Assembly: GCA_014803525.1 (NCBI GenBank)
Contig: JAAVBP010000004.1
Span: forward strand, 121,369-185,368
Reading direction: 5' to 3'
Source: a bacterium
GTDB lineage: Bacteria > Pseudomonadota > Alphaproteobacteria > Rs-D84
DNA: 64,000 bases
The first letter of the stretch is position 1. The number at the start of each line of letters is the position of its first letter. The notes beneath the pieces are model-generated. The model was not told where the DNA came from and made no database searches. It was given only the letters and a program-made list of their open reading frames with translations. This document shows positions 10,127-10,702 of the stretch, piece after piece. Position numbers and translations under genes: made by a program.

Positions 10127-10702
10127 ATGAATTTACAAAACAATATCCGCATATACGATGAATTGCTGTACCAAACCCGTCTGCTGAATCCGAACTGGCA
10201 TATAACCCTTACCTGGAACACAAACAGCAGAACACAGAGCATTGAAATATTAAATAGTCGGGTGAAAGAAATTATGGCGGCTTTCGAACGTTCTGCACGC
10301 GGGAGAAACTGGTGCCGGAAGCATTTGCCGTTTATAATGGTTGCCGAAAAACATGCAGACGATACATTACACGCGCATATTGTACTTAGTGCTCCTGGAT
10401 TTGATTTGGACACGCTATATCATTTGTTTTATATATCTGAAAAGCCGACTTGTACATCTTGGCCCGAAGTATATATCACCCCTGTTTGCGATAAGACAGC
10501 CACATACATATTGAAACAGATAAAACCAGATTGGACAGGGGCAATAGACACGACCAGCTGGATATGTTCGGATATCTTACTGGAATTGAATCATAAAAAG
10601 AAGCGTCATCGTGTAAAGGGTTATCAAAAATACAACACTAAGGTACACAATCACATTCAAATGCTTCCCGTTGAGCCATATTCAAGTGGTGGGCTAGCAT
10701 AA
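10127..10702 (+). CDS. Small HUH-endonuclease-like protein (rolling-circle Rep / MobT-type relaxase candidate)
   Basis: Motif-I-like HITLTW (compare FLTLT), motif II LHAHIVLS (HUH), motif-III-like ATYILKQIK (Y-x-x-K), with spacing matching the pC194/Rep_1-type order. Confidence 0.4.
   Translation: MNLQNNIRIYDELLYQTRLLNPNWHITLTWNTNSRTQSIEILNSRVKEIMAAFERSARGRNWCRKHLPFIMVAEKHADDTLHAHIVLSAPGFDLDTLYHLFYISEKPTCTSWPEVYITPVCDKTATYILKQIKPDWTGAIDTTSWICSDILLELNHKKKRHRVKGYQKYNTKVHNHIQMLPVEPYSSGGLA

Follow-up and report, generated by a model that had tools for sequence, protein, structure and literature searches.

A predicted nuclease-only HUH endonuclease of the Rep class belongs to the conserved core of tRNA-integrating islands in uncultured gut Alphaproteobacteria and appears to be controlled by a leader RNA switch

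Integrative mobilizable elements (IMEs) of streptococci carry several putative non-canonical relaxases, designated Rel_PHA00330, Rel_PF01719/Rep_2, and Rel_PF02407/Viral_Rep, that resemble initiators of rolling-circle replication (RCR) (PMC5357655, PMC5704250). RCR-initiator-like proteins of integrase-bearing islands have been proposed to function in both transfer and maintenance, and the distinction between an initiator and a relaxase is probably not relevant for IMEs (PMC5704250, PMC5357655). A similar concept applies to the MobT/Rep_trans enzymes (NicK of ICEBs1, Orf20 of Tn916, and RelSt3), in which an enzyme of the RCR-initiator type serves transfer as well as replication of the excised form (PMC5704250). 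Herein, we describe an initiator-like gene, called rep, in a 64,000-nucleotide stretch of DNA from an uncultured alphaproteobacterium of the GTDB lineage Rs-D84 (assembly GCA_014803525.1, contig JAAVBP010000004.1, positions 121,369 to 185,368 of the forward strand). This whole stretch is referred to as the window, and its numbering is used throughout. The rep gene occupies positions 10127-10702 of the plus strand and, from an ATG start codon, encodes a protein of 191 amino acids (Rep). The survival after excision and the movement of islands that lack conjugation genes are largely unexplained, and they are least explained in uncultured gut Alphaproteobacteria.

A preliminary description of this region, made from the letters of the DNA alone, had interpreted the open reading frame (ORF) as a small HUH-superfamily protein, either an initiator of the pC194/Rep_1 type or a MobT-like relaxase, on the strength of three motifs. 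The ORF and all three motifs are present: motif I, HITLTW (residues 25-30, nucleotides 10199-10216); the HUH motif, LHAHIVLS (residues 81-88, with H82-A-H84 at nucleotides 10370-10378); and the Y-x-x-K motif, ATYILKQIK (residues 125-133, with Y127 at nucleotides 10505-10507 and K130 at 10514-10516). Because a bare HxH signature and a tyrosine are weak evidence when considered alone, the protein was tested against profiles. The sole significant Pfam family for Rep is PF23343 (REP_ORF2-G2P; E 1.7e-6, 28.7 bits), and the match spans residues 24-132 of the protein and nearly all of the 99-position model. In PHROGs, phrog_3584 ("replication initiation protein") also matches Rep (E 6.7e-7). When 55 relatives with 20-30% identity to Rep were aligned, W62, F69, E74 (nucleotides 10346-10348), H82, H84, and Y127, and no other residues, proved strictly invariant, with K130 nearly so. 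Within motif I, the window protein reads HITLTW, compared to HFLTxQ for the family consensus. PF23343 is matched individually by 50 of these 55 relatives (E<=0.01), and the same assignment is precomputed for most of the close homologues.

Membership in the HUH superfamily, with the order motif I, HUH, and Y-x-x-K, is therefore upheld by a significant profile match and by motifs that fall on the catalytic positions of known Rep enzymes, whereas the more specific labels did not survive. At E<=1 in Pfam, Rep matches neither Rep_1 (PF01446) nor Gemini_AL1 (PF00799), and the absence of a Rep_trans (PF02486) match means that "MobT-like" fails at the family level. Under the same threshold, there was also no match to Viral_Rep (PF02407), Parvo_NS1, Phage_CRI, Y1_Tnp, IS91, or any relaxase family, and a search of NCBIfam with the protein returned nothing. 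Rep does share with the pC194/pUB110 initiators the order of motifs I-II-III, an FLTLT-like motif I, and a nuclease that lacks a helicase. Those plasmid initiators depend on a host helicase. The resemblance does not extend to the family profile, however, and tblastn with Rep gave no match in 50,697 INPHARED phage records or in 72,556 PLSDB plasmid records. We conclude with high confidence from the profiles, the alignment, and a structural model that Rep is a Rep-class HUH endonuclease that consists of a nuclease domain only, with one catalytic tyrosine and no helicase. Its specific family, as judged by profile matches, is PF23343 rather than pC194/Rep_1 or MobT/Rep_trans. Because an existing Pfam family captures the protein and HUH initiators are already known from islands, the enzyme itself is not new in kind.

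Comparisons with solved structures agree with this assignment. When the family profile was compared with all PDB sequences, NS1 of minute virus of mice (MVM) emerged first (E 0.006) and a geminivirus Rep third, and in these alignments the E, HxH, and YxxK motifs of the family fall on the corresponding motifs of both proteins. E74 aligns with the glutamate located ahead of HxH in NS1 and geminivirus Rep, which at the level of sequence identifies it as the putative third metal ligand. Similarly, Y127 and K130 coincide in the alignment with YKHK of MVM NS1, the motif that we take to hold the catalytic tyrosine of that protein. A PDB search with the single Rep sequence produced only one spurious match, to gp120. 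A first AlphaFold model based on 10 close sequences was too uncertain (predicted local distance difference test score, pLDDT, of 56) and was replaced by an AlphaFold2 model from a 38-sequence alignment, with a pLDDT of 81 overall and >90 across residues 11-130. The predicted order of elements is beta-alpha-beta-beta-alpha-beta-alpha, and the model has an antiparallel sheet with flanking helices, as in solved Rep nuclease domains. Motif I is placed on a strand (residues 24-29), H82-A-H84 on another (residues 81-87), and Y127 and K130 on the helix assigned to residues 124-128, whereas the basic tail (residues 158-191) is predicted to be disordered.

A Foldseek search with this model returned Rep of adeno-associated virus 2 (AAV2) as the top match, and likenesses in fold at 8-19% identity include AAV5 Rep (1m55), MVM NS1 (3wrn and 4r94), circovirus and geminivirus Rep proteins, and ORF119 of the virus SIRV1. 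Among viral models (BFVD), the best matches are ORF2/G2P-domain proteins and Microvirus replication initiators. Therefore, the closest structural relatives of the modeled Rep are the initiators of single-stranded DNA (ssDNA) phages and the Rep nuclease domains of parvoviruses and of circular Rep-encoding ssDNA (CRESS) viruses. The likeness to the CRESS group is structural only, and Rep lacks a superfamily 3 (SF3) helicase and does not belong to Viral_Rep, Gemini_AL1, or Parvo_NS1. With the PF23343 proteins of ssDNA phages, Rep shares an HUH domain that scores above the gathering threshold, and its best BFVD matches either carry this domain or are initiators of the Microviridae type. However, those viral proteins mostly have 200-500 residues, whereas Rep combines its nuclease domain, with a single conserved tyrosine, and a predicted disordered basic tail in only 191 residues. 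Unlike the phage proteins, it also resides in integrase-bearing chromosomal islands without virion genes.

The Rep family is rare. A word-indexed search of 5.8 billion proteins found only nine homologues (65-99% identity), and 95 clusters at E<=1e-3, mostly of 150-250 residues, were recovered when the profile was run exhaustively against 1.84 billion cluster representatives. Members of the close clade were found neither among GTDB species representatives nor in IMG/VR. One distant relative does occur in an IMG/VR contig, in a context of integrase and restriction-modification genes and without virion genes. This locus (L102, UViG 7000000633_000399, positions 7908-8567) encodes a 219-residue protein that is 51% identical to family protein P0111. 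The contig is classed as viral, and the 12 kb seen contain two tyrosine integrases, methyltransferases, and an IceA-like nuclease, but no virion gene. It is probably an island that adjoins a prophage or has been mistaken for one.

The genomic setting of rep was examined by comparing the contigs that encode ten of the homologous proteins (loci are denoted by L numbers). In the window, rep lies within a low-GC block that extends from approximately 6 to 19 kb and ends at genes for tRNA-Tyr (19036-19122) and tRNA-Gly, both on the minus strand. The first 15-20 nucleotides of the tRNA-Tyr gene (19036-19055), TGGTGGGAGTGGCTG..., are repeated at 5545-5563, which is a copy of the tRNA 3' end within the left boundary zone (5545-5749), and partial copies are present at 5740-5749 and 4684-4698. 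Two related species (L014 and L015) have an empty site, in which tRNA-Tyr and tRNA-Gly follow the LppC gene within 0.6-1.3 kb, and the distance from LppC to tRNA-Tyr in the window is ~15 kb. Furthermore, positions 5509-5563 of the window are 98% identical to the L015 flank together with the first 20 nucleotides of its tRNA-Tyr gene. Based on the empty-site comparison and the tRNA 3'-end repeat, the island proper covers positions ~5750-19035. This island of ~13.4 kb is inserted at the 3' end of tRNA-Tyr, its integration target, where the intact gene lies on the attR side; it carries its own integrase, and relatives have the empty site. The preliminary description had placed rep next to an orphan methyltransferase and a serine integrase, and its location in a mobile island that carries both is borne out by the gene content and by the recombinase matches. 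The methyltransferase and recombinase genes are those of an orphan C5 cytosine DNA methyltransferase (592 residues; 7937-9715, plus strand), a small serine recombinase of the resolvase/invertase type with a C-terminal helix-turn-helix (HTH) domain (16497-17096, plus strand), and a large serine recombinase, the integrase, at the right end of the island (17485-19203, plus strand), whose conserved part ends near 18973.

Much of this arrangement recurs elsewhere. In the close clade, one or more methyltransferase genes are followed by a spacer of ~400 nucleotides, rep, a 116-residue gene, a 46-residue gene, a DUF3768 gene, a 91-residue gene, variable cargo, a small resolvase, and a large serine integrase. 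The neighborhood of rep recurs in at least 10 loci in which the identity of Rep decreases to as low as 24%. A methyltransferase occupies the position upstream of rep in most related islands, with L006 encoding a DUF5906 protein there instead, and DUF3768 is likewise a partner of rep in most of them. The most universal partner is the 91-residue protein (12009-12284, minus strand), which has homologues in all nine loci compared, distant ones among them, and the ~90-residue proteins of all nine align with one another. At Rep identities of 24-30%, the DUF3768 and ~90-residue genes are convergent downstream of rep in L006, L098, and L099-L101, and rep keeps the ~90-residue gene alone in L008 and L010. 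Some of these ~90-residue proteins match the SAM-like N-terminal domain of integrases (E 3.5e-5 and 2.4e-4), which suggests that the protein may be a small, stand-alone DNA-binding partner of Rep. Homologues of ~90 residues are encoded at 13016-13288 in L006, 10866-11144 in L008, 10980-11243 in L010, 7245-7502 in L098, and 5552-5845 in L099.

In the window, the DUF3768 gene is a pseudogene (11667-12005, minus strand) with an in-frame TAA codon at 11796-11798, after which the C-terminal half continues in the same frame, and the gene is intact (105-110 residues) in six other islands that were aligned. The TAA codon might reflect a true nonsense mutation, a sequencing error, or read-through. A PADLOC search revealed no defense-system match for Rep, DUF3768, or the ~90-residue protein. 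A core of methyltransferase, leader, rep, and DUF3768 accompanies a serine integrase in the window (17485-19203), L001, L002, and L098, and a tyrosine integrase in L094 (17-1757) and L008 (5791-7479), which lie beside tRNA-Tyr and tRNA-Thr, respectively. This pattern indicates that one integration module has replaced another while the core stayed the same. Judging from these comparisons, rep is a conserved core gene of a family of ~13-kb islands that enter tRNA genes of uncultured gut Alphaproteobacteria. Purifying selection acts on rep, with dN/dS values of 0.17-0.26 relative to seven orthologues.

The best reading of these observations is that the island is replicative or mobilizable. A rival reading would have Rep function as the dedicated relaxase of an IME, which nicks an upstream origin of transfer (oriT) and sends one strand to a recipient via a co-resident type IV secretion system, with no real role in replication. 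Such an enzyme would rely on the same chemistry as a replication initiator, and RCR-initiator-like proteins of streptococcal IMEs (Rep_2, PHA00330, Viral_Rep, and MobT) have been read as relaxases (PMC5357655, PMC5704250). Like those elements, the window island is small, is located at a tRNA or housekeeping gene, and has no enzyme for DNA processing other than the integrase and a small RCR-initiator-like HUH protein; the streptococcal proteins have been suggested to serve transfer and maintenance alike. The integrase, the tRNA target, and the methyltransferase genes upstream of rep, which recall the anti-restriction functions of leading regions, also fit a relaxase. However, the streptococcal IMEs are found in Firmicutes, and most encode the coupling protein TcpA, which the window island lacks. 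Moreover, the partners of Rep (the 90-residue SAM-like protein and DUF3768) differ from those of the streptococcal proteins, and MobT enzymes belong to integrative and conjugative elements with full conjugation modules. No coupling protein (TcpA, VirD4, or FtsK-like), relaxosome accessory gene, or type IV secretion gene is present in the loci examined, no relaxase family of Pfam matches Rep, and its closest relatives in sequence and structure are all replication initiators. An exclusive role as a relaxase therefore seems rather improbable, although it deserves more weight than the other proposals for the protein considered below.

Another proposal is that rep is a mere relic, a leftover initiator gene with no present role that came from an ssDNA phage or a small rolling-circle plasmid after its integration. 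The closest relatives in Pfam, PHROGs, and BFVD are phage initiators, and the DUF3768 pseudogene in the window copy would also suit a relic. This proposal must nevertheless accommodate a gene that retains all catalytic residues under purifying selection, in a synteny with the ~90-residue protein, DUF3768, and methyltransferases that is kept down to 24% identity and across the exchange of integrase types. There is also no capsid, morphogenesis, or other phage gene in any locus, and no counterpart of rep in the phage and plasmid records noted above. We consider a relic very unlikely.

Even less credence, in our view, is due to the idea that Rep is an HUH transposase of the IS200/IS605, IS91, or RAYT type, which would mobilize its own gene or the whole island through single-strand "peel and paste" or rolling-circle transposition. 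Its 191 residues are within the range of Y1 transposases and RAYTs, and a RAYT structure is among the weaker Foldseek matches (rank 41). However, neither Y1_Tnp nor IS91 matches the protein in Pfam, and rep is present as a single copy in the window and in none of 80 chromosomal loci of related species. The gene is internal to the island and has a fixed neighborhood, and the island ends are set by the tRNA repeat and the integrases. Transposon-type features, namely repeated subterminal or terminal hairpins or a second copy of the leader or of its most conserved block (see below), were sought and none was found.

The region upstream of rep (leader, 9815-10126, plus strand) provides a second line of evidence. 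The preliminary description had suggested looking at 9.75-10.12 kb for an origin in the form of a hairpin that bears a conserved nonanucleotide. No such hairpin was found upstream of rep, and the inverted repeats that do exist at 9.8-9.93 kb instead behave like a terminator/antiterminator switch in an RNA of the plus strand. Compared to L001 and L002, 11-14% of spacer sites differ, and the corresponding value for synonymous sites of rep is 50-55%. Indels of 1, 4, and 13 nucleotides demonstrate that the spacer is non-coding on either strand; no conserved leader ORF exists, and a minus-strand ORF at 9840-10076 (78 residues) was ruled out as a gene by the same indels. Eight orthologous spacers were aligned with MAFFT, and four helices emerged. 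Helix D (9826-9838 with 9855-9868) has 13 base pairs, three of which covary, and an invariant U.G pair. Helix A (9839-9847 with 9889-9897) has 9 base pairs with three covarying, and helix B (9874-9881 with 9913-9920) has 8 base pairs with three covarying. Helix C (9899-9907 with 9921-9929) is followed by a T-run (9930-9937), and together they resemble an intrinsic terminator. The T-run is present in 8/8 loci, and the free energy of the hairpin is approximately -14 to -22 kcal/mol.

Each of the four helices includes two or three covarying pairs. In the eight-spacer alignment, 96.6% of the helix cells are paired, and 11 pairs exhibit compensatory double changes, compared to at most 2 in slid controls; 0 of 500 shuffles were as good. 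All 27 G.U cells, including the invariant pair in helix D, occur on the plus strand, which indicates that the structure belongs to a single-stranded molecule of that strand. Folding of the upstream region from one sequence was not significant (z -2.0 as RNA and -0.5 as DNA), and only the comparison is informative. Helices D and A exclude each other because no linker separates their 5' arms, and B and C do so because only 0-1 nucleotide separates their 3' arms. The 3' arm of helix B lies in the loop of terminator C (within an extended C stem in L094), making helix B a candidate antiterminator. In six of seven leaders, the A+C and D+B conformers differ by no more than ~3 kcal/mol. We propose, from this pattern of conservation, that the leader looks like an attenuator-type switch in which terminator C, antiterminator B, and the competing upstream helices D and A gate the transcription of rep. 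Thus, rep expression appears to be controlled by a previously undescribed RNA switch.

A sequence that might drive this transcript is located just upstream. The -10-like box TTCTAGATA (9815-9823, plus strand; TTCTAAATA in 6 orthologues) lies ~3 nucleotides 5' of helix D, and the motif TTCTAWAWA occupies this location in 7/7 loci covering that part. Its positions were recorded in 11 loci. On the plus strand, often after an A-run, it is present at 9815, 10806, and 17214 in the window and at 9696, 10679, and 18947 in L001, and it also precedes rep in distant islands (L006 at 9487 and L010 at 9801). Because the copy at 10806 precedes the 116-119-residue gene and that at 17214 precedes the integrase operon, the motif behaves like a -10 element. 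The box at 9815-9823 probably serves as a promoter element for the transcript of the leader and rep, and TTCTAWAWA may be a promoter or operator box of the island more generally. We had also considered GCGTTCTAAATA as a nick site like that of filamentous phages, which we take to be GTTCTTTAATA, but this likeness was set aside because the motif also stands ahead of two other transcription units and so behaves like a promoter box.

Rep leaders regulated by transcription attenuation are known from plasmids of the pT181 and pIP501/pAMbeta1 types. The leader described here shares with them a terminator upstream of an initiator gene that is set against an alternative upstream pairing. It differs in its four helices, which depart from the classical scheme, and is unrelated in sequence; neither an antisense promoter nor a countertranscript was detected at the leader. 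A search of positions 7.0-12.6 kb against Rfam at E<=1 returned nothing, and a metagenome scan with a 20-nucleotide leader pattern returned only two unrelated, high-GC chance matches.

The helices at 9826-9937 might alternatively act as ssDNA, together with a fifth helix (E) nearer to rep, by forming a single-strand origin or Rep-recognition hairpins on a displaced plus strand, in which case the T-run would have no role. In RCR plasmids and filamentous phages, HUH enzymes and lagging-strand origins recognize hairpins in one strand only. The element adjoins rep, the usual place of origins, its wobble bias suits plus-strand ssDNA as well as RNA, and no sigma-70 consensus promoter was found upstream of the leader. 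Because this alternative concerns only the leader, it is compatible with any reading of the protein. However, the preservation of two exclusive helix sets by compensatory change is typical of regulatory RNA switches, and G.T pairs, including one that would be invariant, are destabilizing in DNA hairpins. The T-run that follows helix C without exception and the -10-like box that also precedes two other island transcription units likewise favor RNA. An ssDNA function for these helices is unlikely in our estimation, and we continue to prefer an RNA switch.

Helix E (9996-10004 with 10039-10047, plus strand; two covarying pairs) is located between the terminator and rep. Its loop holds a 24-nucleotide block, GCGCGTGGTCTTCATTGCCGCCCA (10007-10030, plus strand), that occurs once in the window. 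This block, GCGCGYGGWCTTYATTGCCRCCCA, is the best-conserved stretch of the entire spacer, and seven distinct islands fit a degenerate 24-nucleotide consensus exactly, with four degenerate positions and the rest identical. The block and helix E are a candidate binding or nick site for Rep, that is, an origin, although they could instead be a further part of the leader RNA.

Taken together, the evidence leads us to favor, by a little more than even chances, a reading in which a minimal Rep protein nicks the excised island for rolling-circle replication, for transfer, or for both, while the leader switch gates rep. The serine integrase would excise the island as a circle, and Rep would then bind a cis site near its own gene, for which the block in the loop of helix E (10007-10030) is the best candidate. 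Rep would cut one strand by using Y127 and a metal ion held by E74, H82, and H84, and would remain attached to the 5' phosphate. The free 3'-OH could prime rolling-circle synthesis by a host polymerase and a host helicase, the latter being needed because Rep has no helicase domain, and the excised island would thereby be kept from loss. Perhaps the same nicked intermediate could pass to the conjugation pore of a helper element. In the leader, helix C and its U-run would terminate transcription unless helix B pairs the C loop with upstream sequence and so prevents C from forming, with D and A in competition further upstream. Rep would be made only when the ~120-nucleotide leader adopts the read-through fold.

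Several observations weigh against this proposal. The PF23343 score of 28.7 bits exceeds the gathering threshold of 27.8 bits by only 0.9 bit, which is a marginal pass. No nick site, double-strand origin, or single-strand origin was identified around rep, no nick-site consensus was recognized there, and the window island encodes no helicase, primase, or single-stranded DNA-binding protein. The inactivation of the partner gene DUF3768 in the window copy indicates that this island may be decaying. Regarding the leader, the analysis comprises 8 sequences only, and most of the covariation comes from one divergent locus, L094. A short loop of L094 was misplaced by the aligner, and the register was set by hand with N placeholders, which biases helix B. 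The free-energy minimum is usually D+C, which is neither of the two proposed states. Finally, a covariance model finds the leader in the close clade only and not upstream of distant relatives, and a scan for terminators upstream of distant family members likewise found none.

Even with these reservations, four features are new. Rep consists of a nuclease alone, it has fixed partners in the SAM-like ~90-residue protein and DUF3768, its gene occurs in uncultured gut Alphaproteobacteria within islands that integrate at tRNA genes and whose integrases are interchangeable, and its leader contains an apparent switch supported by covariation. It is tempting, but as yet doubtful, to speculate that these islands form an undescribed family with a common engine (HUH nickase, SAM-like protein, and DUF3768) that functions independently of the integrase, and that in one clade a four-helix RNA switch decides the timing of replication or transfer. 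Such a switch would possibly be a riboswitch or the target of a trans-acting factor. If our favored reading is true, then the nuclease-only Rep and its fixed small partners would constitute a compact model for island maintenance or mobilization, through a module shared by islands with different integrases and with cargo of defense, surface-protein, and restriction-modification genes. The leader is a candidate new regulatory RNA that has covariation in its favor, lacks a counterpart in Rfam, and offers a clear read-out (termination versus read-through). Moreover, covalent protein-DNA tagging could make use of an HUH domain of 130 residues whose target is defined. If the protein is inactive or the leader is merely a terminator, then what is left is the routine annotation of an HUH Rep-like gene in a mobile island.

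The remaining genes of the island are as follows. Near the left end are a membrane protein (5865-6818, minus strand) and an HTH protein (7427-7681, plus strand). The methyltransferase gene has its own terminator (9728-9755), and the N-terminal ~240 residues of the enzyme (7937-8660) are without a match in Pfam or PHROGs. In other islands, the C5 enzyme is shorter and is preceded by a separate MT-A70 methyltransferase gene. The conserved 116-119-residue gene (119 residues here; 10842-11201, plus strand), to which no function is assigned, follows rep in the close clade. It is followed by the small genes on the minus strand (11258-12284) that include DUF3768 and the 91-residue gene. Among them, between the 46-residue gene and DUF3768, is a gene for a 79-residue acidic protein (11410-11649, minus strand) that matches phrog_5861 (E 2e-7). 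It is missing from L001 and L002, and L094 has a 187-residue gene at that position. The 79-residue gene looks like a small insertion of phage type.

The cargo position in the window holds an autotransporter-like gene of 1207 residues (12686-16309, minus strand), an assignment made by eye from a start that resembles a signal peptide, repeats rich in Gly, Asn, and Thr, and a C-terminal region that resembles a beta-barrel. Pfam gave no match for it at E<=0.01. In related islands, this position is taken instead by Slam, restriction-modification, Schlafen-like, or ATPase genes, and the small serine recombinase also recurs in them. The integrase ORF has no stop codon before it runs antisense through tRNA-Tyr into tRNA-Gly (19036-19221). 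The profile match of the integrase ends near residue 496, and the last ~55 codons are chromosomal. Excision of the island should therefore change the C-terminus of the integrase.

The flanking LppC-like gene has its best relatives, at <=72% identity, in metagenome-assembled Alphaproteobacteria, many of which are named Candidatus Enterousia, and the host is accordingly an uncultured alphaproteobacterium of the gut. Between this gene and the intact tRNA-Tyr gene, the partial copies of the tRNA 3' end each have a terminator hairpin ahead of them, and the island-free L015 carries a similar relic of the tRNA-Tyr 3' end. The tRNA-Tyr site looks like a hotspot of repeated integration.

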